A stretch of 57,245 nucleotides of DNA, the filler included, from Sluysia triapertura (taxonomy: Eukaryota): the NCBI GenBank assembly GCA_046118255.1. It is 4 parts of 4 records of this genome, joined end to end, with 100 filler letters (N's around TTAATTAATTAA, not from the genome) between each part and the next. Parts side by side here need not be neighbours in the genome. Positions count along the whole stretch, not along the records: positions 13,305 to 28,403 come from JBJNIA010239550.1; positions 28,504 to 42,426 come from JBJNIA010014533.1; 2 more parts are not named here. The stretch is one strand, 5' to 3'. This document shows positions 14,199 to 52,524 of this stretch, one piece after another; within the stretch, counting starts at the first letter, position 1; each line of letters begins with the position of its first letter. The notes below the pieces were generated by a model that ran no database searches, had not been told where the DNA came from, and was given only the letters and a program-made list of their open reading frames with translations. A program made the position numbers and the translations under genes.

Positions 14199-14670
14199 TT
14201 GATGTTACGGTCCTTAAGAACAATAGACATATTAAACATGCATCAACAACCTCTCTACGCAATGAATGATTCTTCTTCCAACAGCCAGAAATTCAATACA
14301 ACAACAACCAATAATGAAACACAGAATCTTCTCTTGCAAGTCCAAAATCTTACGAAACAGGTCGCTGACCTTACAAAAATTCTATGTTCAGAATCAAGAG
14401 AGAACTCACCAACAAGAAGAGAAAGTTCTCCCACATTTTCAACGAATTCTTCTAACTCAAATAAATCTGTAAAAAATTTGCTACTATCACAAAATATTCC
14501 AACAACAGGCTAAATCCTGCCTACTAGAATGTAGATTTCCAAATAAATCTACAAGCCTAACAGTTAAAAACTTGTGCGTGTACCACGCACATTTTCAGAA
14601 AAGTTCCAAAAGATGCATGGACGGTTGCACCTACTTTAAACAAAATCTAAAACCTCCTTCAAAAACCTGA
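14199..14670 (+). pseudogene. gag: Gypsy gag, C-terminal part (5'-truncated, frameshifted), with two Cx2Hx9Cx3C knuckles
   Basis: coiled segment LQVQNLTKQVADL and RS-rich tract, then in a shifted frame CYYHKIFQQQAKSCLLEC (14479-14532) and CVYHAHFQKSSKRCMDGC (14575-14628); aaaaac just before the TGA is a candidate -1 frameshift site. Confidence 0.85.
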
Positions 14671-17555
14671 AATTGTCAACGGTCAAAGTGGCTAGACCGA
14701 AACAACTGGCAATTAATGGTACCTTAACCGTGCCGCTCACCTTTACTGATTTTAAATATCCCAAACTGGATTTTCTAATAGACACTGGAGCTGCTGTGTC
14801 CGTAATCCCTCAACGTATTTAAAATAACAGCACAGACACGCTCTTTTCTTACAGCAGCTATGGCTGCAGAAAGCTACAATTTAAATTGCCACACTTCAAT
14901 AAAATCTTCGAATGGACTTTCTTAATTGCCGCAGTCCAGCAACCGATAATAGGAGCCAATTTTCTAACGCATTACAAAATCCTAGTCGATTGCCACAATA
15001 AAACCTTATTAAAGTCCATCGAAGAACTTAATCATATTAAAATCAAACTTGAGGATCTCAATCACAGCAACATAGCTCAATACTTACAACAGATCCATCC
15101 CAAACTATTACTTGAACAATTCAACGCAGAATACGTTCCTAAATCAGAACACTTTATAAAAACTATACCTACATCATCGTACAGACAAAGACGACGAGAA
15201 CTCGCACAAAAAATACGCAGAGACAGAATTCCTTGAAATGGAAAGACAAGGAATAGTGCGACCCTCTTCTTCTTCATGGGCCGCACCTGTGAAAATCGTC
15301 AAGAAGAAAGATGGAATAATAAGGATATTCAGTGACTACAGGATGCTTAATAAACTCACTGTTCCAGACGCATATCCTATGCCACTCATAACAGACATCT
15401 TTCACAGATTCACTGGTTGCACAATATTCTCTTCAATAGACCTCGCAAAGGCTTATCATCAAATCCCAGTACATATTGAGGATATACCAAAAACAGCCGT
15501 AACAACTCCTTCCGGCCTGTTTGAGTATTTACGCATGCATTTCGGTCTACAGAAATGCAGCACAAATATTTCAGCGTCACATCGATCAAGTTCTTCAAGG
15601 CCTAACCTTCACCACAACTTATATTGACCTCATCATAATTGCCTCCAGAGATTTCAAACAACATCAAACATATCTGGAACACGTATTTCAATGAATTTCG
15701 GACAATAATTTAAAAATCAAAATCAACAAATGTCAATTTTTCAAAAATAAGATCACTTTTCTAGGCCACAACATTTCTGTTGACGGGATAGAACCACAAC
15801 AACCATAAGAGACTTCCCTCAACCTAAAACAGTTACACAATGAGGGGTTTCTTAGGCCTAGTTAATTATTGTCGGCGTTTCATCCCGAAACTATCAGAAA
15901 CAATAGCACCACTAACTGCACTGTCATCGAGAAAGAAAAATCAACAAATCAATTGGAATACCAAATCTCTGGAATCCTTCGAACAAACAAAACAAGCAAT
16001 TATGAAGATGGAAAGTTTAGCATTTCCCCAACAACATTTACCGTTCTCCTTAACAACTGATGCTTCAAATACAGCAATAGGTGCGGTATCAAAATCAACA
16101 AGCGACAACCAGACCAATCGAATTTTATTCCCATAAACTTTCTGCTCGACAAACTAGATATTCGACATTCGACCGTGAATTATTAGCAATCTATCTTTCC
16201 GTTAAAAATTTTGAGTATCTATTACTCCCAGCACAATTCACGCTCGGAACAGACCACAAACCGTTGTTGCATATCTTTACAATGAAAAACCTCACTCCAA
16301 GACAACAACGACACATCAGCTACTTGTACCAATTCAATTTTAATATAGAATTCATCCCAGGACAATAAAACGTGGTCGCTGATGCACTATCACGTGTAGG
16401 TTTAAACAGCATCGAATTTCAATCAATATTCACTGTCGAGGAGTTACAAAATAATTCTCCATCCAGTCTAGAAATCTCCAAATTTTCAACAAAACCACCA
16501 TTACAAAATAGAATTTTCTATGACTATCAATTATCCGGTACTTCTCGACCAGTACTAGGAATGTCAACTCGGATAAGAGCTTTTGAACATATTCATAATA
16601 TGACACACGCCGGAGCTAAGGCCACATATCAATTACTACACTCAAAAGTAGTATGGCCTTCAATGTGCCAAAACATCAAACACTGGTGTAAAGCCTGTTT
16701 GACTTGTCAATCGGTGAAAATTCACAAAAACATAAAACCTCAAACGCTTCACTTTCCCACAGGCCAACTCTTTGATACCATACATATGGATATAGTCGGA
16801 CCACCACCACAATCTCGTGGTTACACTTACATCTTAACTATACTGGACCGACACAGCAGATGGCCCGAAGCGTTTCCAATCAGATCATTTACAACGGACA
16901 CCATATCCAGGATCTTAATAACAAACTGGATTTCACGTTTCGGTGTACCCAAAAGAATTATCACCGATCAAGGAGCTCAATTCGAGTCTAGCCTCTTCGA
17001 CAGTTTACTCAAACAACTCGGCAGCGCTAGACTACGAACAACTTCATACCACCCGCAATCTAATGGTATGATAGAAAGAACTCTCAAAAACTCCTTGCAC
17101 GCATTATCAATAAATCATAATTGGGTAGATGCTTTACCCCTAATTTTATTAGGCTGGCGCAATATCCCTCATTCTTCAACAGGATATTCTCCAGCTCAAA
17201 TTGTATTAGGAACCAACACCAGAATACCTTCGAATTGTTCGAAAATGATAACCCTTCAGAAAAAATATATTCACCTCACTTGCGGCGATATTTTAACGAG
17301 CTAAACAAATCAACACTTCACATCGAGATTCCTCATATTTTCACACCAAAAAATATATTAGACAGCAAATTCGTGTGGCCCAAATCAGAAAATCCAAAAT
17401 CTCTTCAACCAGGATACACCGGTCCCTACAAAGTCATTCAGTTTAATCCAAATAACAATACAGCTTCAATTAATATCCATGGACAGTCTAAAATAGTAAA
17501 CTGGTGTAAACTAAAACCTGCAACAATGCTAGTTGAACAACAAAAAAATCAGTAA
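14671..17555 (+). pseudogene. pol: Ty3/Gypsy pol (PR-RT-RNaseH-IN), multiply frameshifted
   Basis: protease FLIDTGAAVSVIP (14772-14810); RT YPMP..FSSIDLAKAYHQIP..KTAVTTPSGLFEY; RNaseH LTTDASNTAIGAV..YSTFDRELLAI..TDHKPL; integrase HHCC, IHMDIVGP..ITDQGAQF..NGMIER and GPY/F module YTGPYKV; Gypsy domain order. Confidence 0.97.
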
Positions 17556-17660
17556 CCTTTAACAACACTGCTACCTTACTAAACGAACAAAGATTACATA
17601 TAATTCAACTGAAGATACCAGACCCAATCTGTAACTAAACATATATGGCTCCGCATCTTC

Positions 17661-17672
17661 AGAGGGGGCTGA
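17661..17672 (+). other. Polypurine tract (PPT)
   Basis: agagggggctga immediately before TGTGGTGG, about 100 bp after the integrase end. Confidence 0.8.
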
Positions 17673-18746
17673 TGTGGTGGCCAACACTCATAATCATTAA
17701 AAATTTATTAAAATTTCACAACATACAAATCATAATCATACTCAACATTATCAATTTACAATAGCTATTTCATAAAAACATAACTCAATATTCACAATAA
17801 TCAAACAATAAACTCATTCGAAATAATATATCTAATACTCCCAAACCATTCATCTTACACTACATTTTGACATTTAATATCTAACAATCCATAACATTCA
17901 TTTAATAGTTTATTCTCTCAAACCAAACCACAATCACAACTTATAACATACAAACCACAAATACATTTAATACCATTTCACAACATCAATAAATTTACTC
18001 GAAACATATAAAATACTTATGTCACACCTTTGAATCAATTACAACACTCCAAACCCACTTTTCATCTACGCATAACCATCATCAACATTTTACAACAACA
18101 TTGTAAATATGCCAAGATTTATTTTGTAATTGCCTTTTAAATTCAATAAACTATAACCTTTTCAACAAGCCTCTCAAACCATTATATTCAATGCATAAAT
18201 CGTGTTTTCAACTATAAACCTCAATTAAATCTCAAGAACTTATTCTAACATTCTTTATTTCACTTTCAACTCAAATCATTCTATATCTTCAAAAGTTTAA
18301 AGTAAATCTAATACAGCTTTAAAGAATTCAATTTCATAAAATGAAACAGCAACAATAACTCGAGCATAGTATGCTCCGTTATCGTTGCTCTTTCATACAA
18401 TATCAGCAATCTTTATTTTATTTTACATTTTTATATGTTAGAAAGCAAAGGATTAAAAGAAAAGTTCATGTGTTTTTAAAGAAAAGATTTATGTATTATG
18501 TCATTAATAATAGTATTAACAATATTATTATTGTTATTGCTATTATTATTACCTCATATTAAAAAATTGAATTCAATTAATATTAATCAACCTGATCGCT
18601 ACCATCACCAGTGTTGACACAATGTATAACAATTCTCATTAATGTGTCAACACTGATGATGACCAATCATCGGCACTAACACTTTTTGCATACCACCCAA
18701 TCAGAGTTCATACTATTAAATATTCTTTCTTAGGCTCTGATTGGGT
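17673..18746 (+). mobile_element. LTR-like unit, copy 1 (G-poor body plus terminal two-hairpin region)
   Basis: starts TGT after the PPT; colinear similarity to 38181-39284 (gtggccaacactcataat; ttattttgtaat; tcaaaccatt.tat.caatgc.taaatc.tgtttt; ttattctaacattctt.atttcactt; both hairpins). The true 3' end is uncertain (about 18360 or about 18652). Confidence 0.8.
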
Positions 18747-19303
18747 AAGCTAAAAATAATTATATGGAGTTAAAAATAAAAATGTTACAATATCAAGAAC
18801 ACACAAAAATAAACTTTATGTATTTAATTTTTATGATCTCTTTTAAAAATGTTATATGTTTTGGAATATTTCACATAATGTTAGCAACAGTTATCGTCAC
18901 ATCATGGGAAACATTCGTTAATAATACTATTATAGCTATAATACGTTATTTTTTAAATTTTCATGTCAATTTCTCTGCTAATACAAAATCAAAATTAGAT
19001 TATATTATCAATACGATAAATTCAGAATAAAGAAAAGATTTTATATTTAACATTAAAGAAAATTTCATCTATTTTGATCATGCTTCAATGAATAATATTT
19101 ATAATACCTTTATATTACGTTTAATAATACCTTAATTAGTTCAAAAATCTATCACCTTAAGTAATGAGGTACAAGATTATTTTATATATTTCTCAACTTG
19201 TATTTTCACAATTTCAATTTGTGTTACGACAATTTATGGATGTATTCAAGTAAAACCGTCACGTATTATTTTATACCTTTGCATTGAAGTTTTTTATTTT
19301 ACA

Positions 19304-20246
19304 ATGAATACGGTAACAATTACAACTGAATATTCAGGAATAGCTTTGAAAATTGAATATGATAAACAAAATCGGCATACAACCTACTTCCGATCGAATT
19401 ATCGAACGCGTCACAGTAATGCAGTAATATTTATACTTGAATCAATGCCATTGTTTTTAAGTTTCTACATTCTAAATGTTATTTGGGTTTGTTACAAATT
19501 TCGCTCAAGAATAAAACGGCTCAAAACTCGATTCTGGTTTCTCAATGTTAAACACTTTAGTAGTCGAAAGATTGTCAAATTTAGGATTTTGTCGTTGCTT
19601 CCTAAAACGAAGTGGAGATGAACAATCACCGTTATTTATTGTAGATAATTCTGTTATATTTAATGCATCTAATCCAACTAAGCGATTTAGCCATATAGAA
19701 TCATTAGAAAAGAATAAATTTCTCAAATGTTTTTATAAAGTTAAACAAGTAAATATAGAAATTGATAATCCCATTGAAAATACACATAGTGTTAAACGAA
19801 CAAATGTTAAAACGAAGAAACGAATTACTAATTTGTCAAAGTACGCTTGGTACTTGAATCTAAAAGATGACGTCACTATTCCGAATGGAACTTCACGATC
19901 ATTTAACAAAATTAACCAGCAACAACATCCATTCATTCAAAGATTTGTAAAGTTATCCCTAAATTGTCTAAACTCTAATGCAATGGAGATAAGAAAGACA
20001 CAAGTTCTTAACCAATTCCAATTATATTTTCAAATTTTAGTCGCAGATCTAGTGGAAGATACAGATGGTGGTTATCACTTAAAGAAGATAGCAATAGAAA
20101 AATTTTATTCTTTTTCTTATCATTACTTTAACCATGTATCTTATTTAGAATTATGTTCCAGACCTGAATTTGGCGATATGCCCAGCGATGCAGTCGAGAA
20201 AATGTTTGTGTACAAAAAAATCAGTTTCCGAGTTATTAAATTTTAG
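19304..20246 (+). pseudogene. Intronless orphan ORF, probably one frameshifted gene (105-aa and 233-aa pieces)
   Basis: long overlapping same-strand ORFs in very AT-rich DNA; no motif recognised. Confidence 0.5.
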
Positions 20247-20593
20247 TAACAAATTTCTTAAATTATTGAATATGTTAATAAATATTAGTTTAGTTATATT
20301 TAATCAATTATTAGTTAATAAAATTATATATAAATTTCAAAACTTTGTATATTTTAAAAAGATAAAAGGCTCAATGATTTATTTCGCCCCCAACAATCCA
20401 ATAAATAAAAACTCAATCTATTATTCAGTAATACTAATTAAAATTTCGACATGTGTATGTCGAAATCTTAAACAAATGATATTTTTAAACGCAAAAAAAT
20501 TCGGGATACTCAAAATTTTACGCTCAGAGACAATAATCATTTAAATTCGTTCTACAAACGCGATAACACTATACAGATAAATTTGATAATGTA

Positions 20594-20863
20594 ATTGTCA
20601 TAATAATATTCATGTCATAATAATATTCATAATAAAATGTATTGGTATTTTAATTTAATATTCATGCCATAATAATATTCATAATAAAATGTATTGGTAT
20701 TTTAATTAAATAATATTCATGTATTGGTATTTTAATTAACAGAAAAATAACATTAATATTTTAATTTAATTTATAATATTTATTTTCGTTTTTCATAATA
20801 TAATATTGGTATTTTAATATTAGTATTCATTTATTTAGATCTAGGAATAAAGTAATAAATAAA

Positions 20864-20907
<44 letters not shown>

Positions 20908-21270
20908 ATTATTATTATTATTCAATTAATATTGTTGTAGAAAAATTATTACTATTCAGAAAATTGTTAGAAAAGTATATTAACAGAACAAAATTTGTAT
21001 AGAAAAATTGTACCAATTAAAATTATTAAATTTTTGTACTGCTTATTTTATTAATTGTTGTAATAAAATATTTAGAAAAGTATATTAACAGAACAAAATT
21101 TATATAGAAAAATTGTACCAATTAAAATTATTTAGAACAGAATTAAATTCTATTTTTGTACTGTTTATTTTATTATAGAATTAAATTTTAACTATTTTGT
21201 ACTGTTATTAAATAATTATCAAATAAAATTATATATAGAATTAAATTTTAACTTTTTGTACTGTTATTAT
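20594..21270. repeat. Local tandem duplications and (ATT)n tract
   Basis: repeated cataataatattcat and aataaaatgtattggtattttaatt units; about 60-bp direct repeat at about 20968 and 21073; ATT run at about 20868-20922. Confidence 0.8.
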
Positions 21271-23237
21271 TTGTCAGAATTTTATATTTATTGAAAGTGG
21301 AATTGAGTATAAAAAGAGACATTAATCATATTACAAGCATTATTTGTGGATCAAGCTACTATATTGTGATTCTTGATCGAGTTATCAGTCATTTTTTTGG
21401 TTGATCGAATTACCAAACATAACAAATCATTTCTTGTTACCAGTCATTTTTCGTTGATCGAACTACAGACTATTGCAAATTATCTTCAACCAGTATACTA
21501 ATAAAGGAATTTCGAAACTTGTTAAAATTGACTGTGAGTAACTCTTTATTGTTTTATTTTTATTTCTACGATCTATTAATAAAATTAAATATATTTAATT
21601 AATCATTAATAAATAATTTTTTGATTTTGTTTTGTTTTTTAATTTTGCATAAATTAAATCTGAACTTAAAAACACTTAAATAAAGTTAAAATAAACAATT
21701 TATTAATCTTTTAATAAACTAAACCATCCAAGTAAGAGTGACACCATAGATAAAGATTATTACTATCAAATTTTGAAGCACTTTCATCCTGATCAGCAAG
21801 GACGAGTATATTCACCCATACCTCCAGTAAACTCTACGAATAGTAAACAAAGTTAACATTAAAAATATTCGAGTTTAGTATCAGTTGAAATATTGTATAA
21901 GTATATATAAATAAACTTATTACAGTACTATTACCTTTAATCAAAAACTTATTAACTAAATTTAACTTATATTTATTCAAATCAAAAAACAAATAAAGCT
22001 AAAACTAAATTCATCTATTTTGATTATCTTTAGATAAAAAATATCTTTACACATAGTTTAAACAACTTTTGAATATGCTTGGATAAGTTTTCATGTGTTC
22101 TAAAAAAATATAAGTATAAAAATTGATTTAAATCAAAATAAATTAAGACAAAATTTAAAATCACCTCTAACTCATCTCGCATCACTAAATCAGATGGCAG
22201 GTTAATACAGTTATAGTTAGTAATACTAGCAGCACTAATAGATAAGTTCTTCATTTCAGGTATGAAACATGGTTTTAGTGGATCTGGAAAAAATAAAATA
22301 TGAAAAAGGTTTTGATAGAATGTGGTTTTATGTGAGATATTAAATTAAAATGTTAAATTAAATTTAAAACGTTTTGAATTAATTTTTTAAGTATATCTTT
22401 GATGAATTTCGATCTTGAGTATGATCTTGATGCTATGAAATTTTATGTATAGAATGTTTGAAAGTATTAAGAATTATGAAATGTTCTGAAGAGTGATTTT
22501 GTTTTGTATTTTGAAATAAAATTTTTAAAATATTGGGTTGGTCACCACAACAAAAACTAATTAAAATTTAAAGTGAATTTTTTATATTTCTTTTAAAATA
22601 AAATTGCTTAAACGAAATTTAAATAAACTAACGAATATGTAATTAAATATTGTTGTAAAAATGATTGCTGTAATTCTTGTCTTCAAAATATAATTATTAT
22701 TGTTACTACTATCGATTTATAAATATTAAATATTAAATATTAATCCGTAAAATGAATCTCAAAATTTATAAAAATGTCTTTCAAAAATGATTCACAAGTT
22801 TGTGATGCGTAATTGTGATATACTTTTTTACTAATGGATGATTTAAAATTTATAGTTATTTTTCTGTTAAGGTCATTTGATCTTTGATGCTAAATTGGTG
22901 TGATGACTCATGCTTAATACTAGGTTCAATAGTACTTAATCATAATAACATTAATGTTTCTAGTAATATTTAATAATTTTGTTTTTTTTATAATGAAAAT
23001 AATATAATTTTTAATAAATAATTTAGTAATACTTTTAATAATAAATTTAATAATTTAGTAACTAATAATTAGTTATATAACAAATAATATAATGTTAATA
23101 ATAATAGTAATCAATAATAACCATTTAATCATTATTAGATTTAAAATATTATGTTAATTACAACACTAATGAAATTATTACATTATGAAATATTACATTA
23201 TAAAATCAAATTATTACATTAACAGTAACAAACTGAA

Positions 23238-24130
23238 ATGGGAATTTTAGAACGACGCCTAATAACCCTGGTAATATCAATATATTCATGAAGAACATTT
23301 ATTTGGGACATATTCAACGATGTCGACTTAAATATAACACATTCCATATTGAAAATCATTTCAAAACTTTTTAAACCTTTTCTTTCAATTTTTATACAAA
23401 ATTGGACAATTCATTGGAATTATTATTTAACAATTTTTTGAAAGGATCAACATTGTACATAATTTTAAAACAAAGCACAAAATAATTATACTTTAAAGAC
23501 TTTATTATTTTTGATTTTTCATTGATTCCCGTTATGTAAAATTAAAAAAGTCTACCAATTTAGGTTAAATATTTCTTTAAAAAAATTCAAATGTTTCTAA
23601 ATGCTCATACGTTCTATAAATTTTATACGTACTTATAATGACTAATAATTTAAATTTCCTTGTAAACTTGTGTTCCTAATAATATTCAATATCCTTACTT
23701 TGTTTTACTTTTAACTATGCCAAATTCTAAATTCTTTAATGTAACATTCACAAATTGTTATTACTCTTCTAATATTTCTGAATGGCTTCTTAACATTTGC
23801 TAATACGAACTTTCGGTTTGTAATGATAATCTAGATGTCTTTACTTATTTTACTTTTTATCAACTAGTAGTAACAATTATAATCCTAAATGGGTTCGCCT
23901 ATGATATACGGTTTGTATCCCAAGGAAGACGTATTCAAGAAATTCCTTCGTAAAGTAACTTTAATAACTTAGATGCGTAAAGAATCTATAATTATATAAA
24001 TTCTCTAAATGATATATCATATAATAAGTTTTTTCCTTTTAGAATGACTATTCTAACACTGATTTATTACTAAAAATTCTTATTAATTTTATTTGTAATA
24101 AACTTTACTTTCTTTAAAGCAATTTAAGAA
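23238..24130 (+). pseudogene. Decayed hydrophobic ORF, related to 37560-38143
   Basis: frame from 23702 reads ...FNVTFTNCYYSSNISEWLLNIC*...VVTIIILNGFAYDIRF...; nucleotide match gatatacggttt...agacgtattca with 37690-37727. Confidence 0.4.
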
Positions 24131-24192
24131 ATGTATAATTCACAAAAAATATTTATTACTAAAGAAAAACAATCGTATAAAAAATTTCAATG

Positions 24193-24194
<2 letters not shown>

Positions 24195-24246
<52 letters not shown>
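24195..24246. repeat. (AAT)n microsatellite
   Basis: perfect AAT run. Confidence 0.95.
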
Positions 24247-24247
<1 letters not shown>

Positions 24248-25653
24248 GATATTAAATAACAACAAAATAGTAAAGCAATATTTCCTAGTACTTTTAATAA
24301 ATACAAATTTTAAAGAGATTTTAATCCAGGCGAATGCTTTTATGTTTTAATTTATAATATTTTACGTGGATTTTAAAGCTATCAAAAGTGAAGCTAAACA
24401 CTTAATAACAATCAGCTTACTTATTCATGGAAAATAATATAAGTTTCCGGTTTGGTTAATAAAAGTTTTTCACAAGTTTGATTTGAATAAATATTCTACC
24501 AAGTAAACTATTATTTCAGTTAAGTCTAATTTCCACTAATTTATCTTATCGAAATGTTCGACGAAATGAACGATTATTCCAAATATCTTCTTTGTAGTAG
24601 TAAGAATTGTAAGGTCAGAAAAATATTAGTAGTTATTAATTGAATAATTGTAACTTATTCAATTGTCTGGAGAATCAAGCTATAAAGATACTTGGAGATT
24701 TTACTGCTCAAATACCAACTCATTTCTCTTTGATTCAAGATTTTTTAAAATTTATCCAAAAGTTAATTATTGTTAAGATTCTTTTCTTTTAAAATCAAAT
24801 CCCACGGAAATATCCGAGATAATTTTAATCTTTTGGGTAATTACTCATAAAATTTATGAAATGTTCATTATCAAAAATAAAACTGTAAAACATGGGCTTA
24901 TGGTCTAGCCCACTACTACGTACACACCACATAAATCACAACAATCACCTCATCACAAAAATACAGGTTGGTGGTTGACTGCGTTGCTCGTGATGCTATC
25001 TTGCATCGGTTTGAATGTTTAACTTTTGATTTCGTTGTCTTTTCGGTTTCGTGTCTTGTAGTGAATGAATTTAAATTAAAATTATCAGATTTAAGTTTAC
25101 TATCATTAAATTTTTTTGATTTTGTTGAGAGAGAGGGTTTGTTATGTAGTGTAAGTGGTGAAGTGTTATATGTTGGATGTATTTGTGTGGGGTATGTGTT
25201 CATTTTGTTTGTGAAAGTTTGTCTAAATGTGGTATGTGTGATTTATTGTGTCGGATGATTTGTTTCGAAGTGGTGGTTGTGCAGTATAAGGTGTTGTGTA
25301 GTATAAGTGTTTTGCCTTGTGATCTTGCAAGTGTGCTGAAGTATTTTGTATTGATTCTGTAGGGTTTAGAATTGTTTTGTTGAGGTTAGTGCATGTATAG
25401 TTGACAGGTGATTGACTTGTTTTTAGCGAGATGTTGTTATTTGTTAGTGTATAACCTGCATATATTTCAGATATGAATCTAACAAAAAATCGCCAGATCT
25501 ATTTATATCCATTACTATCTATTTTCTTGTTTTGTAAAATATATAAATATTAAATATATAAAAATTACAAATAGTTAATTGTCAAAAACTACTAAAAATT
25601 ATAAAAATGATGGTTAGAATGTTCATTAGAATTATGAAAAATATAATTTTATT

Positions 25654-26325
25654 TCATTTATTGAAAGTATCAGTTTGGTGTGGTTGGGTTTGACACTGTT
25701 TTAGTTTGCATGGATTATGCCACAGATTTAAAAGTGATAGTATTTCATAAATTAACTTATTATTAGCCGACTTTATAGATGAAGGATTAAACCATGTGTC
25801 TATGTTTAAGATGTGCGTCAAAGTTGAGGACGTATTATTAATTTCAATAGAGCAATACTTATTAGACATTAATTTAAAGGGTGAAAGTATGCATGAAAAA
25901 TTGACTTTGTAGTTATAAAGTTTAAGTTTTAATGTTTTACTAGTTAATACATTGTTTTTCTCATTTAATGTACTCATTGAAACTAGTATTAAACTTTTAT
26001 TTAAATTATAATAACAATAATTCGTAGTTGTTGAATCTTTCAACCTAATGATTTTGATGCGTCTGGTTTGTGATGGCCGAGGTATGTTTGTGTAGATATC
26101 AAAATAAATTTTTATGTAATACAAATCGAAAATTAAAATTCCAGTATTAAGAAAATTGGACTTAAGGTCCTTGTAACTAAAGCAATTATGCACTTTAAAT
26201 TGATTAAAGAAATTAACATCGTTATTAAACTTTATTTTACGGGTTAACAATTTAGAATTATTAAAGAAACAATAATGTAAACACATATATTTAACTTGAG
26301 TCATAATTTTATAAAAATAACACAA
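25654..26325 (-). CDS. Intronless orphan ORF (223 aa, likely start MTQVKY)
   Basis: open 670 bp, co-oriented and about 60-80 bp downstream of the 343-aa ORF; no family recognised. Confidence 0.45.
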   Translation of the reverse strand: MCYFYKIMTQVKYMCLHYCFFNNSKLLTRKIKFNNDVNFFNQFKVHNCFSYKDLKSNFLNTGILIFDLYYIKIYFDIYTNIPRPSQTRRIKIIRLKDSTTTNYCYYNLNKSLILVSMSTLNEKNNVLTSKTLKLKLYNYKVNFSCILSPFKLMSNKYCSIEINNTSSTLTHILNIDTWFNPSSIKSANNKLIYEILSLLNLWHNPCKLKQCQTQPHQTDTFNK

Positions 26326-26384
26326 ATGAGTATTTTTTACTACAACAAAGTATTGATAGTCGTCACAGATCTCAAATAAATTAG

Positions 26385-30690: not shown

Positions 30691-31884
30691 ATCGTATAAT
30701 AATTCTTAAAACAATGTCACAACGTTATCAATATCATCATATTAAAATATAATAATGATATTATTGTAATCATTATGATTTCTGTTTTTACACTTCATCT
30801 TCCTTTTATTTTTACCACCAAACTTCCTTATATTCTTTTGTCTGCTTGAGTTGATATGTATATTTACGTACATATGTATATTTATGTATGTGTGATTCTG
30901 ATCCAGTGTCGGAATCATTTTGGACAAACGCTTGGTGTAAATTTGCAAAAAACAATATGGACACATTTGAACATTTGAATACTGACGAATAAAATAGAAA
31001 GTTTTACTGAATCGCATGAATATGTTAACTTGCACAACTTTACTGAAGACAATGACAGACTACATAGGGAAAAGGAAGTATGCAGAAACGCCTTTAAAAT
31101 GTTTAAACTTCGAAAAGAATTACTGCGAATATAGCATGCCATGTCTGTAACCAATAAAATTCGATAAATAAGTATGTGCTCATCAATTCTGCATTGACGA
31201 ACTCGAAATTAATTGGCATTATAAGAAAACAATTTATTTTGTAAGAGCAAAGTTCAACTTTATAATGGTATGAATAATAATTAATTACGAACAGCTCAAA
31301 TTTCAATGTTATACACCAAAATTATGAAACAAAATTATTATCAACTGCAAACAAAACTTATGATTCTTCGAAAGAGACAGAAATTGACATATATAATCCA
31401 AAACATACAAATACAGTTTTCACATTTTATCATCAAGAAAGTATTATGAAAGCAACAACAATAATATATTTCAAAACGATAGCCATTTAATAAATGATGA
31501 AAACCTTTAAAACATTTTTAGACAATTCAATTAAAAATAATATGATGCTTGAAAACAAAATAGCACTCAATTATTCAATTGATATTGTTTTAACATTTAT
31601 CGGTAATTTTGATGATTCACCAAATAAATATATTTTACCAAAAACAAAGAGAAGTACTTTTAGTGATGATTCAAGTGCATAGTATAATACATATGCTAAT
31701 TCAAGCTTCTCTTTTAATATGTTTGGCAATGCTTAAATTTAAACTATAGATGTAGAGCAAATAGTGCGTCAACCAAAACCTGAAATTATATAAAATAATG
31801 TTAAAATTAATAGATACTAATTAATTGCTAACCTAAAAAATATGTTATCGATTGTTTTAAATCAAGCTGTTTTATATTTATGAT

Positions 31885-32492
31885 ATGTTTCTCCTTAAAC
31901 ATTTTATAATAGTACTTTTACTATGTTTGCTATTATGTTATGTAAATGGGTTGTACAAACATTTACATTCTTCGACAGGGGAATCAAACCTCAGTAACAA
32001 TTTAAATGTCAGAACGAAGTATCTACAACCATTTGAAGTGCAAATAACGAATTCAGAACGTTCATGATTTATTATTTACTATTCATATTTGATGATTTAT
32101 CAAAAACTAATAATATTATGTACTTTATGTACTACGGTACATTATTAGGTTCATATAGATATCGTGATTTTGTACTGTTGGATGATGTTATTAATATAAT
32201 AGTAGTTTTACATGATACAGAAACTGTAAAATGCTTGTTCGGAAAATTATCGTCCGAATATTTATACGTTGCAACTTGTATCCGCCACAAATTCTTTCAC
32301 AATTCAGCTAAACCTATTGAAAATTATGAACGTGGTTGGCTAGTTATTGATATTTCTTCTTACATTATTAATGATTTAGATTATTACGATATCATAAGTA
32401 ATAACGATTTGACTCTTGCTTCAGTAATCATTTTTATCAGGTATGATATAAAATATTTGAAATATAATAATATAAGCATAAATAATAAATAA
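31885..32492 (+). pseudogene. LicD/fukutin-family nucleotidyltransferase pseudogene (intronless, frameshift at about 32064)
   Basis: N-terminal signal/anchor; NNIMYFMYYGTLLGSYRYRDFVLLDDVINI matches the LicD GTLLGxxR....PWDDDxD motif with the acidic motif degraded; GWLVIDISSY resembles WPFVDIFFY. Confidence 0.75.
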
Positions 32493-32719
32493 TACCTTGA
32501 AGTTCCAAAGACATATGTAGGGTATTGGGACCCTTATGAAGAGTTAAGTAAGGTTTGGAAAGATGTCTTGAAGCATGGAGGTACCTTTGAACTTCTGAAC
32601 CTTGGATCATTTGAGACTTTGTTGATATTCTGGAACCTTTGAGACCTTAACAAACTTTTAAGATTTTCGAGTAACTTGGTAAAATGCTTGGAACATTTGA
32701 AATGTTCAATAATTAAAAT

Positions 32720-32858
32720 TGTTGGGGTAAAAGACCTAAAAAGTGTCAAGTAGTATAATTGAATATATTAAAAATGATAGCTCAGTGGTAGAGCATTCGA
32801 ACTGCGCAGCGATGGTACCGGGTTCGATCCCCGTCAGTCCATTTTACGAAGTCTAACA
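32720..32858 (+). mobile_element. Second copy of the short tRNA-bearing TG...CA element, with 4-bp TSD
   Basis: aaat|tgttgggg...tgatagctcagtggtagagca...gggttcgatcccc...gtctaaca|aaat. Confidence 0.75.
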
Positions 32859-35069
32859 AAATCATGGGTAATGATATTAAAGATAAATTTGATGCATTAA
32901 TAATGAAAATGAAAAAGAAAAAGGAATCAGAGTGGTAAATGTGAAAATATCTAGAGCATCCTGATTACCTTATAAAGTATTTAACAACTTTATAATCATA
33001 ATAACCTTTTAAATTTAGAATAAAATAAGTTGAAATAAATAAATAATTAGTTAAAATCTTAATAAACTTAATAAAGAAAAATTACATTTGTGTGAATTAC
33101 TTTTGAATGAGGAATGCTGTTTTAAAACTGTAATGGTGTATGCATGTGTTTTAAAGAGATAATTAAAAAATGCTGAATTTTCATATTCAGAATGATGAAA
33201 AGATTGCTATGAAAAAGGAGAATTCGAAAATGAGAATGTTTTTGAAATGGTTTGTTTATAATGAAAATATTAATAATTTTCCATTAGAAAATTAATTAAA
33301 TTACAAAAACTAAAGTTAAATTCATTATTTTTAAGTAAGTCAATAATAATAACAATTGTTATTTTAATGTAAGAAGTGATTCATGAAAAATAGATCTAGT
33401 AGAGTAGAAGAAAAAATAAAATTTGGTTTTAATCAAATTTTTGCGTTCTGCTTGACAGTTTATACCATATAAGTATCAAAAGCATTATGATCGGTTTAAT
33501 CTTAACAGGAGTTTTTTATGATTTGTGTAAGAGTTATTGTTGATTATGAATTTGGGAATGATTGGACAACACAAAAGTATAAAAGAGAATAACAAAATGA
33601 TTTAAGTTAACCAAAAAAGGAATGATGATAAATAAATCCATGCGAGTAATATTTTTTAGTTTGATTTTAATTTAAGTTTTTAAATATTTGAATTTAATAA
33701 GATTATTAATTTCTTGCATAAAATCACAAAATGTTAAAATACTTTTACTTTAACTGATATTATATTTATTATTCGAATAAAATTTAAGCTTTTTTTGTGT
33801 TTATTGACTTTTTCAAATGAGAAAATAGGGATTGAAAAATATTAATTGCTGACGAATATTAATTAGCACTTCCATCTATAAGAACAGAGATGAGTATAGA
33901 ACTCAATCTCCAAAATTAAATTCATCATAAATTAAGCAAAAAGTTATTTAAAATAAAGTTATAAAAGTTTAATTTTAATTTAGAAGCTGGTTAAAAGTAA
34001 ACGAAAAAGAGTAATTTGTTTAAAAAGGAATTAGCAAGTATATAGAGATTTAGGTTAAAGCTTGCAATAACTATAAAAATTATTATTAAAGTTATGTTTG
34101 TGCAAGAGCATAAAGCTATAAATTTTATTATTTTGTGTTATAAATTCTAACACAAACTATAGGAACTATATCTTGAGAAGAGCTCACTAGGAAAAAGACT
34201 GGAGTCTAAATATTATATGCATTAATAATAAAATTTTACATTAAAGTAAGAAGTCAAAAGTCTCACATTATCGGTAAAGGAACCATAAAGAACAAATTTT
34301 GAGAATCAAAGTCAAAGCCTACTATTAAGACTTAAAATAAAACAAAATTAAGCAGAGTTATTATTTACACCTACAATTCTCAAAAATAAGCTTTAATTGC
34401 TCAGGAATCTATTTACGGGTTCCATCACTTTTATACTTGGAACCCATTCTTGATTTTATACTTTGACACATTTTATATTTTAGTGAACATTTCAATTAGA
34501 TTCACTGTTTAATGCCAACCTGTTATAGTTCTAGTGTGAACACATATTACAGTTTCATAAGTATCCTTACATAACATTAATTATGGTCCAAACACAAATT
34601 CAATCTAAAAAACTGGTTCCAAGTTGGCATATTTTTTGGATTAATGTACACAATTTAATTTAATATATATCACTAATTATTGATCTAATACATTTGCAAT
34701 AACATTTTCAATCTTAAAAAATAACTTCACACATTATCTATAATTTTTAAAGATATTAAATATAAATTATTTTACTTTCATGTTATCTACTCACTATACT
34801 TATAAAATGCTTTCATTTATAATGAACCATGACATCATAAAATAAATTTCGTTTATAAATATTTAATTAGCGCACATAGCGGTTGATAGAATTTATAGAC
34901 ATCGATAAAAAATCATACACATATTTTTATAAAGTTTAAATATATTACTTCATAAGTTAAGATATTTTTTCACAAATTAAATCCATAAAACATTTAAATA
35001 AGGAATAATATCAATAATTCCATATATTTGTATACACTCTGAAACACAAATTTGTTTTATATCACCGTA

Positions 35070-36323
35070 TTATTTATTTGCATTTAAACTTTGAAAAATT
35101 TGTTTGGGTTTACACGTTATCGTTTTAATAACTGGTTCACTTTTATGAACTGTCTTAACCACATCGATAACGACTTTACCATTTGAAAGAACTAGTTTTT
35201 TAGGTGCATTTAATACAAGAGAATTGTTTACCATTTCATTCTTTTTTATTTCTTTCGAATTGTCATTTGTAATATTTAGTTCAATGGGAACATGAAGTGA
35301 GTTTGAGTTACAGCGCTTTAAGACTTTTGATTTAGATAGTGGAACATTTTGATTCCATGACCACTTTTTATTTTCACTATGTGGTTGATTAGATACTTGT
35401 GGTTTGACAATAAAATAATTTCTTTCAAGATAGCCTTCAACTGAAGGAACTAAGTGAGAATTTTTAATCTTACACGAATTTTTTATACAAGTTTTCAAAG
35501 TACAATTTTTAGATATCTTCTGAGGTACTTCTTTATTGAGCTCGTATATAGGATTAAAAAACTGATTTACTTTAATGTTTTCTTTAAAACCCATAGTTGT
35601 ATTTCTTTCACTATCAGTTGCGTAATCTGTACTATCGTCATCTTCATTTAAGTTAAATGAACTTGTGTCTATATTTTCATTAATTAGTGATTTTGGGCTT
35701 ATATAACGTTTTTCAGATTTTTTCACAGAATCGTTGAGATCATGGCCGTTACCATTACAATTATTGGTCATAAGAGCTATTAAACAATTTACAAATTTAG
35801 TACGACCTGAATTACTAACTTCGGAGTCTTCACTACACACACACTCAGGGATTTGTCCTATAGCAATAAACATAAAATGCTTAACCAGAAATTTAGACAG
35901 AGGAATAAGAACATCCTCAGTGAATTGTAACTGCTTATTATCCATACTTTTTTTAATACAGTTTGTTATTTTAGTAATGTCAGATAAAAACTGCAAAGCA
36001 TTTTCACCAAGAACATTAAAAAGCTCAAATAGCTGGTATACATTCAAATTATCAAGCCCAGTCATTATGAAGTTATCATTTGGTACTATACTTTGGAAAT
36101 TATTTATTTCTTTTTCTAAAGACTTTAATGAATCACACTTAAATATAGGTCATAATATTAAAAAGAAAATTACTTCACATTGGAAAGAAAACCCAATTGC
36201 ACAAACAATACATCTGGAATCAGGAGTTAAATTTTGTTTAGTACAATCATTACAAAATATTCTATTACATATATCACAATTAAGTAAATTATCATCTTTT
36301 AAGCACCAATAACACCTTTCCAT
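35070..36323 (-). pseudogene. Intronless ORF of 417 codons with an N-terminal ADD-type (all-Cys) PHD finger; one in-frame TGA at codon 58
   Basis: ATG at 36323 is in frame with the 331-aa ORF: MERCYWCLKDDNLLNCDICNRIFCNDCTKQNLTPDSRCIVC; TGA at 36150-36152. Confidence 0.75.
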
Positions 36324-36444
36324 ATCTTCGATTATATTTTAAAACTGTTATTATTAAGGCATGAATTAAAAGAAATATAATTAAAACAAAACAAAATATT
36401 TTCAATTAACCAAGACACATTTATTGATGTCAGTAAAGCACTAA

Positions 36445-36687
36445 CTAAATTCTTTTAGACCTCTGATGTCTTTTTTCTTTTGATTTGATAAATTTATTGA
36501 TTATATTTATTAATACAATTAATCCACCGAGACAGCTATAGCTAATTATCACAGCAATTGCACAATGATAATTATTGTTCATAAAATTTTCATCATATTT
36601 TATAAAATACTTAGCATCTTTTTTAGCATCCTCTAAATTAATACAGTGACATAATTTAATTAATAATAACAAATAAAACAATTTCAT
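36445..36687 (-). CDS. Small putative type-I membrane protein (80 aa)
   Basis: signal peptide MKLFYLLLLIKLCHC, short ectodomain, TM AIAVIISYSCLGGLIVLINII, basic tail KFIKSKEKRHQRSKRI. Confidence 0.55.
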   Translation of the reverse strand: MKLFYLLLLIKLCHCINLEDAKKDAKYFIKYDENFMNNNYHCAIAVIISYSCLGGLIVLINIINKFIKSKEKRHQRSKRI

Positions 36688-37559
36688 ACCAATTTCTGAA
36701 TATTTATAATGTATATTCTCATTAAAGTAGCTTATAAATTATTTTAAATTAGGCATGCAGCATGAATTACATAATTTAGCATAAAACTAAACAAATTGTG
36801 AATTTATTATTCTATTGTTGTAAATGTGCTTCAGGTGACATTTTAATTTTCACAAAATGTGAAAAAGGACACTGAAAATAAATAAAGACCAAAATTTTTC
36901 TTACAATACAAATAAATTAATCAATATATGATATTATTTTGAAATTTAAGCAAGAGAGCAAATGGGAAAATATACTAAATTACATAAAAAAGTATATTCA
37001 GCACAAGAATAAGATTAATTGCTTATCTTATTATAATACATACATCCCTTAGTTTATTTATATTTTCATGATAAATTTTATTTAAAAATTGTGTATTTAT
37101 TTAAAATTATTAACAATAACTTATTAATTAAATTAGGATGAAACCTCGCTATATTTTCAATAATCACAAATCAGATAAAAATTATTACTTATTCTGTGAT
37201 CACAATATACTCTCAATATTGTCAAATAACAAAATATAATACTAAAATCCAGAGTTAAAACAAATATGGGTTAACTAACAACAATAATAAAAATTTTGTT
37301 ACAATATTTAGTCAGTTGCAGAATGTTGAAGCAGCTTTCTTATTGGAAGTTTCTCTTTACTAGTTTATTCTGCTACTTATGTCTGAATATTTAACAAAAA
37401 TATGAACGCTTATAATTTCTGAGGAGATTAACAAAGGAATATTGAAGTAATTACTTAGTGAATTACTTATTCCTTTAAGTCGGTTGCAATCTGACCAATT
37501 TTAATAATTAAATTATGGGGATGATTTCCGTCGACTTCAAATTTATCATATCATAGCAA

Positions 37560-38143
37560 TTACCCAAAAATAATAGTGTTATCTTATTAGCTTAACAATA
37601 TCAAAATGTAATATGACTATCATATTAATGTTTACTGTGCTGGTATTTTTCTTAAGCTTAGCAAAATGTAATTACTAATGAAGGTCAGTCTACGATATAC
37701 GGTTTAAACCTAATGAGACGTATTCATAAGTAACAGCACTTATAAAATTTAAGGTCACGTCTCTTTACTCGTATCTTATATTTCCTCAGTTTATTAACAC
37801 AAATTATAACCTTAATAGTATTACGTTTCTTGAAATCTTATTATTTACTATGAAGGGTTATTATGTAATCAAATTTAATGAGAGATTCTTTGACTTTTAC
37901 AATTATTCGTCTATATTTTTTAACCGATATGACTTTACTCGTTGTTCACGATTTTTAAAGTTCTGTTTGACTTTAAATATCATTTCGCTCACTTTATTAG
38001 GGTTAGTTCACGAGCGCCAACAATTAATATGCTTAGTTTTGTATTGCATAAATAAATTTTATTTAAATTCAGAAATATGTTTTGGATGTATACTTTTACA
38101 AACCGTTTTAATATACTTTCTACAGACAAGTAAGTTTGTTTGA
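37560..38143 (+). pseudogene. Decayed hydrophobic ORF, related to 23238-24130
   Basis: VYDIRFKPNETYS*VTALIKF... continues in frame into the 97-aa ORF 37850-38143 with a hydrophobic, Cys-containing C-terminus. Confidence 0.4.
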
Positions 38144-38180
38144 TACTTAAACAATACTTATCATTAATATCAATGCCTAA

Positions 38181-39284
38181 CGTAGTGGCCAACACTCATA
38201 ATTTAAAATTAATCAAAATCTCATATTTGACATACACAAATTAAATTTAACCGAAACTCAATTTTCAATATAATCACACTTTTTACTATCGAACTACACC
38301 AACACAAACATCATAAAAACAACACGCGATATTTATAACACCTCATCAACTCACACATATCAACAAATCAACTAACATTTATAACCATCCATAAGACAAC
38401 AAACCCCGACATTTAATCTCGAATAACTCACAACATTCACTCATAAGATATTTTAATAAACAAATCACAATCGCAATATAAATTACACAAATCATAAACA
38501 TAATAGCATTATTCAACAACCCTAACAAGTACCTTAGAAACATAAATCATTTAAATCAACTACACCAACCTAGATCCACTTCATGTACGCATATTCATCT
38601 TTTACACTTACTAGTAATAACATTATAATATACTAAGACTTATTTTGTAATCGTCATTCAAAATTAAGACAACTTCAACCTTTCATTAAGCATTTCAAAC
38701 CATTCTATCCAATGCGTAAATCTTGTTTTTAAATTATAAATCTTCAATAAGTTTCAATAAATTATTCTAACATTCTTCATTTCACTTACAACCTAAACCA
38801 TTACATCTTTCAAAAACAAATTTAAGATAACTTTAAAGGTTTCATTATCATACTGTGAAGCAACAACTACAAATGATACATTATATACTTAGTTATTGTT
38901 GTTCCTTCACAGTATAACATTTGTTTTCCTTTTTATTTCATTTATATATAGAATAAAAGATTACCACAGAAAAAGATCATGTTCAGGCTTTTTAAAGATT
39001 TCATGCGTTTTTTTATTAATAACAATAATAATAATAATGTTATTATCGTTATTATTATCATTGTTATTATTATTATTTTTACTATCAAATGCACTTTAAT
39101 AATAATAAATTTTATTAAACTAATTACCGCCGTCATCAGTACTATTTGTGCTGATTAAAATTGTCATTAGAATGACAACACTGGTGACGGTGGTTGTTTT
39201 GTCATCAGTTAGTAAAAATCAATTTTATCATCACCCAATCAGAGTGCATATAATCCTCAATATATTTAAAACACTCTGATTTGG
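38181..39284 (+). mobile_element. LTR-like unit, copy 2 (no PPT upstream)
   Basis: cgtagtggccaacactcataat start; colinear with 17673-18746 including both hairpins. Confidence 0.8.
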
Positions 39285-39406
39285 CAGTCCAAGAAAACAC
39301 ATTACTATCTCAAAAAAATTTTTGTACTAACAAAAATAGATAGACAAAATAAAACAATTAATTAAACATCAGTTAGCGAAACTTTTACCACACGAAAATT
39401 TTGAAA

Positions 39407-40452
39407 ATGTATCAATTACGTCAAAATTTCAATTCCGAAGGTGTAACACTTAGGAAAAGGAAATTAGTTAAAAAATGTGGTGAAAACAAATGTTTATCAA
39501 CTTTGCCATTACGATTTTTGCATGTTATTCAAGAATATTCTGATTCTAATTTGAAATGGTGTCAATTCTTAAATGGTAAACCTATTTGTAATACTTCTAT
39601 GAATAAAATAACATCATCCTTCAATTATGATATACAGTGCCAAGAAATAATGAATTGGAAAAATGAATGGATTACGAAGACACATGATAACAGTTCGATT
39701 AATGATTTCATTTCTAATAAGTTACTGTCTGTTTGGTGTCGATGTGTTCAATGTAAGAAATGCAGACGAGTTAAACTGTCAACGGAAATAATGCCTACAC
39801 AATTAGAAAACGTCTCATGTAGTTTTATAATGAGACATACCCAAGATCCTTGTAAAGTGGTTGAAGATAAGAGAATTCAGTATATAAAATCAAATCTCGA
39901 AAAATTTTTGTTTTCTTTAGTTTATGAACTGCCGTTAGAATCTTCAATTAATTTCGAATGTTTCAATAATTCAGCTTTAAATATTGTCGAAATAAACCCA
40001 ACTGTAACTGCATTAGATTTTTCTCTACCTGTAAATTGTAAAGAAGTTTTCGAAATTTTCATGCTTTTAAGCAGGTGTCATACATTAATTGTGTTGCAGA
40101 AGCTATTAATCCTGTGATTTTGGATGATTGTGAAATGAGCGCGTTTCTAGAATTTAAAGCTAATCAGAAATACTTATGTCTTAGTTTTCGAAATCTTATG
40201 TTATTTTTATGTGTATCTGATCCAAAGATTTTAAAGTCCAACCCAGATATCGGCCTAAAAACAAATAAAAGGTTCGAGTTGAATGTAGATGTTCTAAGAA
40301 ATTACTTTTTTGTCGACAGAAAATATATAAATCTTTTTCATAAATTAGAGCATGTTAATTTAGTTAAAACATTTATTAAAAAGACCGGTCTATTTAATAA
40401 AGATGTATTGCCAACGGGCAGATTAAGGATTTTAAAATTACAAAAAAAATAA
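39407..40452 (+). pseudogene. KDM1B: Intronless LSD2/KDM1B-like fragment: degenerate zinc finger, CW finger and SWIRM; frameshift near 40050; no intact amine-oxidase FAD motif
   Basis: KKCGENKC..; WKNEWI..FISNKLLSVWCRCVQCKKCRRV..SC..DPCKVVEDKRI (cf. LSD2 WKKIWT..FMADQQLPYWVQC..CRKWRQL..RC..DHCSLPEDLRV); second frame INPVILDDCEMSAFLEF..LSFRNLMLFL..FIKKTGLFNKDVL (cf. VRPDVMELDELYEFPEY..LALRNLILAL..FMTRKGLINTGVL). Reference strings recalled, not searched. Confidence 0.8.
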
Positions 40453-42426
40453 TCATAATGAAATTCAAGAGAGTCTAAGAGGTCCCATGTTCATCAGTGA
40501 AGAGATAAAGACTTTTAGGAAGTATAAATGCAATTATGAAAAGTTAATTACATTACATGCCGATAATGGTACTCAAACACTTTCTACAAACCACGTTTTC
40601 AATGTAGATCATCATATTATGGTTCAATTTTAGTTATCCCTGTGACGTCAAAAGGTTATTATTGCACTATGTCGTTAAACAAAGACATAATATCAACTGT
40701 TGAGTTCGTTGATATAAATTTTATTATACTTTATTCTGTTTATATATCTAGATGATTATTTTTTAGTTGATAACCAACCACTCTGGATCAGTGAATTGCA
40801 ACGAGAATATTTCAGCAAATATGAGGTCAAATTTTCACAAGTAAAGAAGATTAATAAACTGTTTTCGAAAGTTAATCTTATCCAATTTTTTAGTTACATA
40901 ATAAATTATAATGATAGTCTTGTTCTAATTATGATTCATTATTTCAATATTAAGTCATTTAAGTATTGCGAAATATGACATATAAATCTAAATTAAATTT
41001 TACTATACCTTTCAAAATGTTTTGTATAATCCATAAAATAAATAAAGTTATACAACTTTACACGTAGATATGAATTATCCTTTTAATCCAGAACCAAAGC
41101 TAGAAATAGTTATTTACGAAATGAAATTATTACTCAAATACACGCACTGTATAATAAATTTAATTTTTAAATTGCTTAATAATAACAATTAAAATAGGCT
41201 CTTAACTAGAATCAAATCTGCAGATCTATATATTAAATCTCTTTTTAAACACTATTTTACAGTCTATGCCTCGGCCACGACCACCACAATTTTGATAAAG
41301 GTTAATAAGTCAATCACTTTCACGTATTATTAACTTAAAATCCCATTTTAAATCCACATTATATAATCAAGTTACTATTAATTTTGTTTATTGATCTTAA
41401 GCAAAATCATTATTTAAAATCGTCACTGCAATAAGACGAAAAACAAATCACTGACACTATTCTATTAGATTTTCTTTGTACTTTGACCTCCAATAAGTTA
41501 AAAAAATTTGTCAACAATAATAATTGTTATATTTAACTAATCTTCTTTTATACGCCACTTACGTGTTAGTCCTTAAGTGATTAAGGGACTCACTTTAACT
41601 TAAATTTATTTAGCTATAATACACATAAAAACTTACATATATATTTTATGTATTTATAACTATTTAAAATTAATCTTTAATACAAATGTAATAATTTTAA
41701 ACGAGAATTTATTATTGGCTTAAACAAGCAGAAAAGTAGTGATCGTTTGAGTATGAATTTATATCATGAATTTATATATTAAAAGTTTAAAACCCTAACA
41801 ATAGCAACTTACGAATATTATTGATTTTTTCTTTGAAAAACTCTTCCGCTATGGAAAATTGATCTGGAAACTGTTGGAAAACACGAAATGAGTAGCTACC
41901 AAAAAATTCCTCGTCTGGATAAGTTTACAAGACTATAAAAAACTCTGTTTTTTAATTTTTTAAGCTTCGCGGTTGTGATATTTATTATTAATTAGTTAAT
42001 TGTTTATCAATTATTTTTGTATTTGTTATGTAATATGATTTAACATACTATTTCGTTTCATTGTTATTAATAAATTGAGCTTTAAAATTTAATATTTTGT
42101 AAACATTATTTTAATTTTCTAATTTTAAAATGATATAATATTCCTTTTTTTCATTTTTAATGTTTTATAATTTCAGTTTTTAACTTAGCACATAAAATAA
42201 ATTTACTCTGATAGTATATAAAAGATTGAGAATTGTATGGCGACTTCACTCACTTATAAGTTGAATACAATTATAAGTTAAGATCTACATGAAATAGTTA
42301 CGAAATAAAATCATTTTACAATGTGATTAGTTTTATTTAACAATGTATTTATTTTGCTTTTGAAAAATTATAATAATTATAATGAAAAACATTATTATTA
42401 TTATTATATTATTATTATTTATTATT

Positions 42427-48240: not shown

Positions 48241-48283
<43 letters not shown>
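48241..48283. repeat. (AAT)n microsatellite
   Basis: perfect AAT run. Confidence 0.95.

Positions 48284-51067: not shown

Positions 51068-51532
<465 letters not shown>

Positions 51533-52522: not shown

Positions 52523-52524
<2 letters not shown>

Follow-up and report, generated by a model that had tools for sequence, protein, structure and literature searches.

A CsRn1-type Gypsy family in Sluysia triapertura that may carry amplified fragments of captured host genes

According to the available part of its description (PMC2582038), the CsRn1 clade of Gypsy retrotransposons is defined by the gag motif CX2HX9CX3C. Retrocopies flanked by long terminal repeats (LTRs) and formed via template switching are established in animals, as given in the accessible text of Tan et al. 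2016 (PMC5131818). For Burro, the portion of the account at hand (PMC6431247) lists CCHC gag knuckles, env, BIR, BCL2, MATH and ankyrin domains, one 4,873-aa polyprotein and a size of >30 kb. In addition, Mavericks of 15–40 kb have expanded in Dugesia, as far as the consulted section of 10.64898/2025.12.11.693146 goes. Here we have analysed a window of 57,245 nucleotides from the Sluysia triapertura assembly GCA_046118255.1, in which contig B carries a decayed gag-pol of CsRn1 type, and contigs B and C each carry an LTR-like unit followed by open reading frames (ORFs). The host is an AT-rich animal, and its Six-family gene matches SIX1 (E 1.5e-27).

In our best explanation, to which we give a probability of about 0.55, related elements of the CsRn1 clade carry, downstream of an LTR and a hairpin leader, host fragments acquired by retro-capture and then amplified. 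The key observation is a fragment of the histone demethylase gene LSD2/KDM1B in contig C, which lies behind an LTR unit and is highly repeated, so that the family has likely captured and spread pieces of host mRNA. An earlier reading made from the DNA letters alone (the sequence-only reading) had proposed a giant Gypsy element with captured chromatin-reader cargo; its observations have been partly confirmed, and its interpretation is partly supported. Its own caution that the two blocks lie on different contigs is borne out by the N-linker at 28404–28503. That is, since the range under study consists of parts of contigs B and C, a physical link between the two blocks is absent. All features are collected in Table 1.

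Table 1. Features of the window, with positions counted along the whole stretch.
Feature	Position	Strand	Remarks
Contig A	1–13204		one of four contigs joined by N-linkers
Contig B	13305–28403		15.1 kb
gag remnant, C-terminal part	14202–14667	+	two CHCC motifs; tblastn of relatives' gag
Decayed pol, PR-RT-RH-IN	14763–17552	+	alignment to intact relative P0145
Polypurine tract	17661–17668	+	sequence; identical junction in L002 and L015
LTR-like unit B, including hairpin leader	17673–18756	+	right boundary of the true LTR provisional
Two hairpins, unit B	18603–18745	+	18603–18661; 18696–18745, arms contain CCAATCAG
Membrane-protein-like ORF	18764–19621	+	two in-frame stops; 19 bp after hairpin 2; Pfam Mtp E 0.045
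233-aa ORF, no family	19545–20246	+	Pfam, Atlas
YDIRF motif, copy B	23891–23938	+	marginal similarity to copy C
216-aa ORF, no family	25654–26304	-	Pfam, PDB
UBR1/UBR2 N-terminus-like fragment, intronless (ClpS domain region)	26385–27431	-	Pfam, PDB, Atlas
Artificial N-linker between B and C	28404–28503	none	
Contig C	28504–42426		13.9 kb
ADD-type PHD gene	35070–36323	-	single-copy depth; one in-frame stop
80-aa ORF, one hydrophobic segment	36445–36687	-	bin depth ~11x baseline; within the unbroken ADD contig
YDIRF ORF, copy C, broken	37600–38143	+	repeated region; ends 37 bp before LTR unit C
LTR-like unit C	38181–39295	+	very high depth
Two hairpins, unit C	39127–39284	+	positions match unit B, stem sequences differ
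LSD2/KDM1B zinc finger-CW-SWIRM fragment	39407–40452	+	amine-oxidase domain absent; frame break near 40.05 kb; multi-copy
Repeated tail	40516–41901	none	depth 477–895, ~24–45x baseline; no identified gene
Contig D	42527–57245		

The proposed gag-pol of CsRn1 type, with a polypurine tract (PPT) leading into an LTR-like unit of ~1.1 kb, has been verified. Reverse transcriptase (RT), RNase H (RH) and integrase (IN) at 14.2–17.55 kb of contig B pass the Pfam cut-offs, and the gag remnant contains the exact CX2HX9CX3C motif twice (14479–14532 and 14575–14628), a doubling that also occurs in the relatives L002, L003 and L004. As is typical of the clade, a GPY/F motif follows the protease (PR)-RT-RH-IN order at the C-terminus of pol, and the PPT stands directly before a 3' LTR with a TGT start. 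The unit begins with TGTGG at 17673, and L002 and L015 share its PPT/LTR junction. Compared with P0145 (999 aa), the pol is colinear and of ordinary length, with 34–71% identity by segment, and is broken by five frame changes and three in-frame stops in 2.75 kb. Because the capsid region of the relatives has no match upstream in contig B, and no copy of the LTR unit precedes gag there, this gag-pol is 5'-truncated or eroded. None of the 79 metagenome loci around related integrases matches any non-pol ORF or LTR unit, the integrase has no confirmed relative in IMG/VR, and a 21-nt pattern from the LTR start gives 0 matches in viral and metagenome contigs. By eye, the gag ORFs of L002 (~1050–1290) and L003 (165–300) apparently open with a ubiquitin-like stretch ending in LGG.

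The recurrence of the LTR/hairpin unit at 38181 is likewise upheld (nhmmer E 2e-50), with two hairpins per unit. The two units are 64% identical over all columns and 74% over ungapped ones, and are therefore too diverged for both ends of a single insertion. The folding z values of the hairpins are -5.1 and -3.8 in unit B and -5.0 and -3.4 in unit C, and Rfam gives no family and no ribozyme for the hairpins of either unit. After hairpin 2, a sense ORF follows in both units (2 of 2), at a distance of 19 bp in B and ~120 bp in C.

The ORF behind unit C is the LSD2/KDM1B fragment, whose zinc finger-CW-SWIRM composition had been recognised before and is well supported. Its zinc-finger/CW ORF (39407–40117) is matched in the PDB (E 3e-5) and by profile (E 2e-26). 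The SWIRM piece in the next frame (40042–40452) scores weakly, at 11.1 bits, yet above 500 of 500 shuffles, and the profile score increases from 88 bits to 101 when the frame break is read through with X. The three domains form one continuous reading region, colinear and free of intron-sized gaps, whose end coincides with the expected start of the amine-oxidase domain. A search through 1.84 billion representatives, exhaustive in kind, has returned 11 matches, i.e., nine ordinary LSD2-like proteins and two unrelated repeat proteins, none of them close; a word-indexed protein search scored 0 of 98 candidates, which, as this search is insensitive, shows no absence. The structure model of the fragment is of low confidence outside the CW part, and its Foldseek match is not independent because the model was built from LSD2 relatives.

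The fragment has a 246-codon open frame and shows 18–24% identity to seven longer LSD2 rows. Its CW part has kept all four cysteines and the first conserved tryptophan, while the second tryptophan is replaced; only three of the eight C4H2C2 finger ligands are kept, and five are lost. The long open frame and the kept CW cysteines at ~20% identity suggest that the fragment has been under long coding constraint, which, judged from the sequence, we consider rather probable. We take the two conserved CW tryptophans to be the cage; with four zinc cysteines and one of these tryptophans, the putative methyl-H3K4 reader would have an incomplete cage. Structural work reportedly argues that LSD2's own CW does not bind H3K4me. 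CW domains can bind H3K4me3, as stated in the part of a review available to us (PMC13632499). As five of the eight finger ligands and one CW tryptophan are lost, methyl-H3K4 reading is doubtful, and the H3K4-reading cargo envisaged by the sequence-only reading seems unlikely. We rate a decoy or scaffold role higher than such reading.

Copy depth has been assessed in one public run, X1, which shares 71% of the sampled words of 33000–42400; its contigs were placed on contig C (28504–42360) at 80% likeness, and the single sites considered below come from 40 of the 1085 difference rows and 6 of the 3509 loose ends. Since a summed contig depth is no copy number, the X1 depths are to be read as orders of magnitude only. 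Unique contigs have depths of 9–28, and 20 was taken as the baseline. The LSD2 bins reach 3106, 6010 and 1908, i.e., 95–300-fold the baseline, with up to 21 distinct contigs per site, and the frame break is apparently private to this copy, both among these sites. The LTR bins reach 72,000–79,000 (3,600–3,900-fold in the LTR core), with swings of 1,700–134,000 along the LTR, while the hairpin sites have depths of 5500–7900 and the YDIRF-side bins 1531–5704. The depths of hairpins and LSD2 fragment are of one order, which fits joint travel.

The three bins of the ADD-type PHD gene, which had been counted as cargo as well, have depths of 22–34, ~1.4-fold the baseline, and a single X1 contig of 3,446 bp covers 33672–37117 with zero differences. 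The sequence-only reading had named single-copy cargo as its own refutation: this fails for the LSD2 fragment, since the fragment, found next to a CsRn1-type LTR, is clearly present in many copies, but holds for the ADD protein. The PHD itself, at 36153–36323 (minus strand), does match ATRX (E 8e-4). An ADD domain consists of a GATA-like finger followed by a PHD; here the PHD part alone aligns, and the ORF starts at the PHD. Its single stop falls within a 36-nt GTAA..AG stretch (~36135–36170), a possible intron, so that the description of the ORFs as intronless, which suits the colinear LSD2 fragment, may not extend to this gene. Of the 9291 stop codons of the window, 461 (5%) lie in such a stretch by chance, and the short introns of flatworms, the group in which the sequence-only reading placed the host, peak at ~36 bp according to the portion of PMC5036155 consulted. 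Because of the single-copy depth and the possible intron, the ADD gene is probably a host gene and a neighbour of the element. Its long frame gave 2146 candidates and 0 scored in the word-indexed protein search, again an insensitive search that shows no absence, and PDB searches with it and with the 216-aa ORF gave 0 hits. Upstream of this single-copy region lies an unannotated repeat of very high depth (~140,000; 33124–33585).

How such cargo could arise may be pictured as follows. Pieces of host mRNA would be captured during reverse transcription by template switching and then spread as cargo, with the LTR and hairpin leader serving as promoter and leader for the next ORF, i.e., the membrane ORF in B and the LSD2 fragment in C. 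Cargo units that have no pol of their own would be copied in trans. Contigs B and C may then be old copies of two subfamilies, each caught where one LTR unit separates two cassettes. If the LSD2 fragment is kept as a protein, its CW fold and SWIRM might serve as an LSD2 decoy or scaffold without catalytic activity, and not as a methyl-H3K4 reader.

Several observations weigh against captured cargo on CsRn1-clade elements. Unit C has neither a PPT nor pol upstream, neither contig B nor contig C has a closing LTR or an LTR pair, and no target site duplication (TSD) is seen on either contig, with none clear around unit C. A canonical primer binding site (PBS) for tRNA-Trp was not found in unit B or C; the TGGTGAC of unit C is private to this copy, with another letter in 52 X1 contigs, and does not occur in unit B. 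The ORFs of contig B lie downstream of the apparent 3' LTR, outside a textbook element, and the UBR-like block among them, 7 kb away from the LTR, is encoded by the other strand. Copy depth covers contig C, and the B ORFs count as candidate cargo. X1 is a single run, possibly of the source sample itself; in view of loose ends at 37549, another repeat may contribute to the YDIRF-side depth, and the link from LTR to cargo consists of one junction per contig plus summed depth. Between hairpin 2 and the start of LSD2, depth falls to 68, which fits a fast-evolving spacer and LSD2 copies without an LTR alike; a fall to 29 also occurs within the LSD2 ORF. Because of these swings and dips, depth is compatible both with linkage of LTR and LSD2 in other copies and with its absence. 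In addition, the LSD2 fragment was compared without the host's own LSD2.

The alternative that survives best, though we consider it clearly less likely, is the insertion of an ordinary CsRn1 element into another carrier of the ORF blocks, either an independent DNA element of many copies (Maverick/Polinton-like, Helitron, Pack-TIR or an endogenous DNA virus) or a family of segmental duplications; B would then hold a truncated CsRn1 copy, and C a solo LTR. The occurrence of ORFs on either strand and to either side of unit C would fit, as would the lack of PPT, pol and PBS in that unit, an LTR depth 10–50x that of the flanks in X1, the plain gag-pol structure of the relatives L002–L005, which have none of the cargo ORFs, the expansion of Mavericks in Dugesia, and the 91-bp inverted copies at the ends of contig B. 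Against it, no clear TSD is seen around unit C, and a sense ORF stands close behind both units. Mavericks/Polintons have pPolB, integrase, ATPase and capsid between long terminal inverted repeats (TIRs); in the 41 frames scanned with Pfam, we have found no polymerase, ATPase, capsid, transposase or helicase family. Neither the LSD2 nor the UBR-like ORF has a confirmed relative in IMG/VR, in an exact-pattern search that reaches close relatives only. As for the inverted copies (13305–13397 and 28313–28403, 93% identical), an 80% copy with the same inner edge stands alone in contig D (43341–43424); the repeat therefore looks like a common short one, and the contig ends are probably assembly breaks at it and not TIRs.

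More speculative is an extension of the cargo explanation itself, which we regard as improbable in this full form: a modular family of retroelements with several LTRs, where captured host regulators (a dead LSD2 decoy, an N-degron-type UBR fragment, small membrane proteins) would form separate cassettes, each driven by an LTR and hairpin leader of its own, joined in chains with gag-pol units and kept by selection for interference with the chromatin or ubiquitin control of the host. Three weak tests agree on the UBR-like fragment: Pfam ClpS (E 8e-4, below the cut-off), PDB UBR2 (E 0.016), and Atlas, where it falls in UBR clusters (score 0.86, 181 shared features, 10 of the 10 best matches from one family). 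With a shorter query, the PDB match weakens to E 0.82 and the Pfam ClpS match improves to E 8e-4; a single-sequence model has a pLDDT of 33 and is unusable.

Little is left in favour of the model of the sequence-only reading, a single giant Burro-like LTR element of >30 kb to which both B and C would belong and whose many accessory ORFs would include the ADD protein. Burro carries ubiquitin- and apoptosis-related accessory domains in the available text of PMC6431247, with which the UBR-like fragment would fit, and an element of that size would not fit into short-read contigs of 14–15 kb. Against this stand the different contigs, the 64% identity of the LTR units, the absence of any TSD, the single-copy ADD region, a CHCC gag in place of the CCHC gag and 4,873-aa polyprotein with env given for Burro in that text, and a pol colinear with an ordinary 999-aa relative. 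Two further ties had been proposed between the blocks. The PxCxCS..GR ORF family said to be common to both is not supported: its two ORFs, the UBR-like one in B and the ADD one in C, give a best BLASTP E of 0.56, and the B ORF instead matches UBR-box/ClpS proteins. The YDIRF match between B and C comprises two exact words, 12 and 11 nt long, in collinear order (nhmmer E 0.032); 1 of 200 shuffles reaches its score, and 9 of 126 background tiles score higher while three tie, so that this marginal match does not rise above background.

Equally improbable is that LTRs have come to lie by chance, in a genome rich in repeats, beside ORFs that are retrogenes of the host or members of one of its expanded gene families: this is true for the ADD gene as far as depth tests it, the LTR family is abundant enough for chance neighbours and intronless LicD-like host genes lie nearby, but a truncated LSD2 fragment with ~100–300x depth and many variant contigs is hard to explain without a mobile vehicle, and the LTR-hairpin-ORF layout is seen twice.

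Among the remaining sequences, five long ORFs have 243–359 codons, compared with maxima of 108–138 in shuffled DNA. The membrane ORF, like the 233-aa and 216-aa ORFs, has no reliable family. The 233-aa ORF was considered as a viral RNA-dependent RNA polymerase (RdRp) and rejected, its Atlas clusters lying below the reliability marks. At 24900–25700 (minus strand), there is a C/A-rich stretch with the strand bias of the LTR start, which could represent a decayed ORF whose end encodes a hydrophobic segment; as an LTR relative it was discarded, since it is similar to neither LTR unit. A decayed intronless LicD-like ORF lies at 32064–32640 (plus strand; Pfam LicD E 0.015, below the cut-off). Elements of ~140–160 bp of the form TGTTGGGG...ACA with an internal tRNA-like part occur at 30532–30690, 32720–32858 and 6700–6850; the sole significant Rfam match is tRNA-like (30600, E 9e-8). 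Their X1 site depths are up to 950,000, and the copy at 32720 is flanked by AAAT on both sides; they resemble a SINE derived from tRNA, or a miniature LTR element, of very high abundance. Spliced host genes are an endophilin-like BAR/SH3 gene, read by eye (2567–8601, plus strand), and the Six-family homeobox gene (49370–52996, minus strand). No RNA run is among the public runs listed as sharing words of 33000–42400.

Compared with the described part of the CsRn1 clade (CsRn1, PwRn1, AgCR; PMC2582038), the gag-pol of contig B shares CX2HX9CX3C, the PR-RT-RH-IN order, GPY and a PPT before an LTR with TGT start. It differs in the doubled gag motif, in an LTR-like unit of ~1.1 kb versus 381 bp in PwRn1, in the lack of a canonical tRNA-Trp PBS, and in the host-derived ORFs after the LTR, where that account, in the part available, found no env and no chromodomain. 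With Burro/GYPSM1 of planarians, the locus has in common a Gypsy element in an AT-rich animal genome and host-like accessory domains, including ubiquitin-pathway ones (available text of PMC6431247). The locus is not Burro, whose CCHC knuckles, env and polyprotein of 4,873 aa stand in contrast to a CHCC gag, an ordinary pol and separate ORFs here; LSD2- or UBR-like content is not among the Burro domains listed in that text. The LSD2 fragment follows the zinc finger-CW-SWIRM order of the LSD2/KDM1B N-terminus (PDB 4GU1, 4FWE), and departs from it in the absent amine-oxidase, the 3 of 8 C4H2C2 ligands and an identity of ~20%.

The closest parallel for the cargo is LTR-mediated retroposition as given in the accessible text of PMC5131818, with which the LSD2 fragment shares an intronless host-gene piece in sense orientation that adjoins an LTR. 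An upstream LTR unit is present here, and no downstream one within contig C. The retrocopies of that text are young, while our fragment is very diverged and apparently amplified to the order of 100 copies. That is, the vehicle and the capture route are already known, and what seems new is the cargo and its amplification: for LSD2 or UBR cargo in LTR elements, we have found no description in the open-access literature, with Repbase and Dfam outside the search. Animal LTR elements are already known to take up pieces of host mRNA. If our explanation is true, a captured piece of a histone demethylase, amplified to some 100 copies by order of magnitude, would be a direct candidate for a factor that the element encodes and that modifies the host's control of its chromatin.

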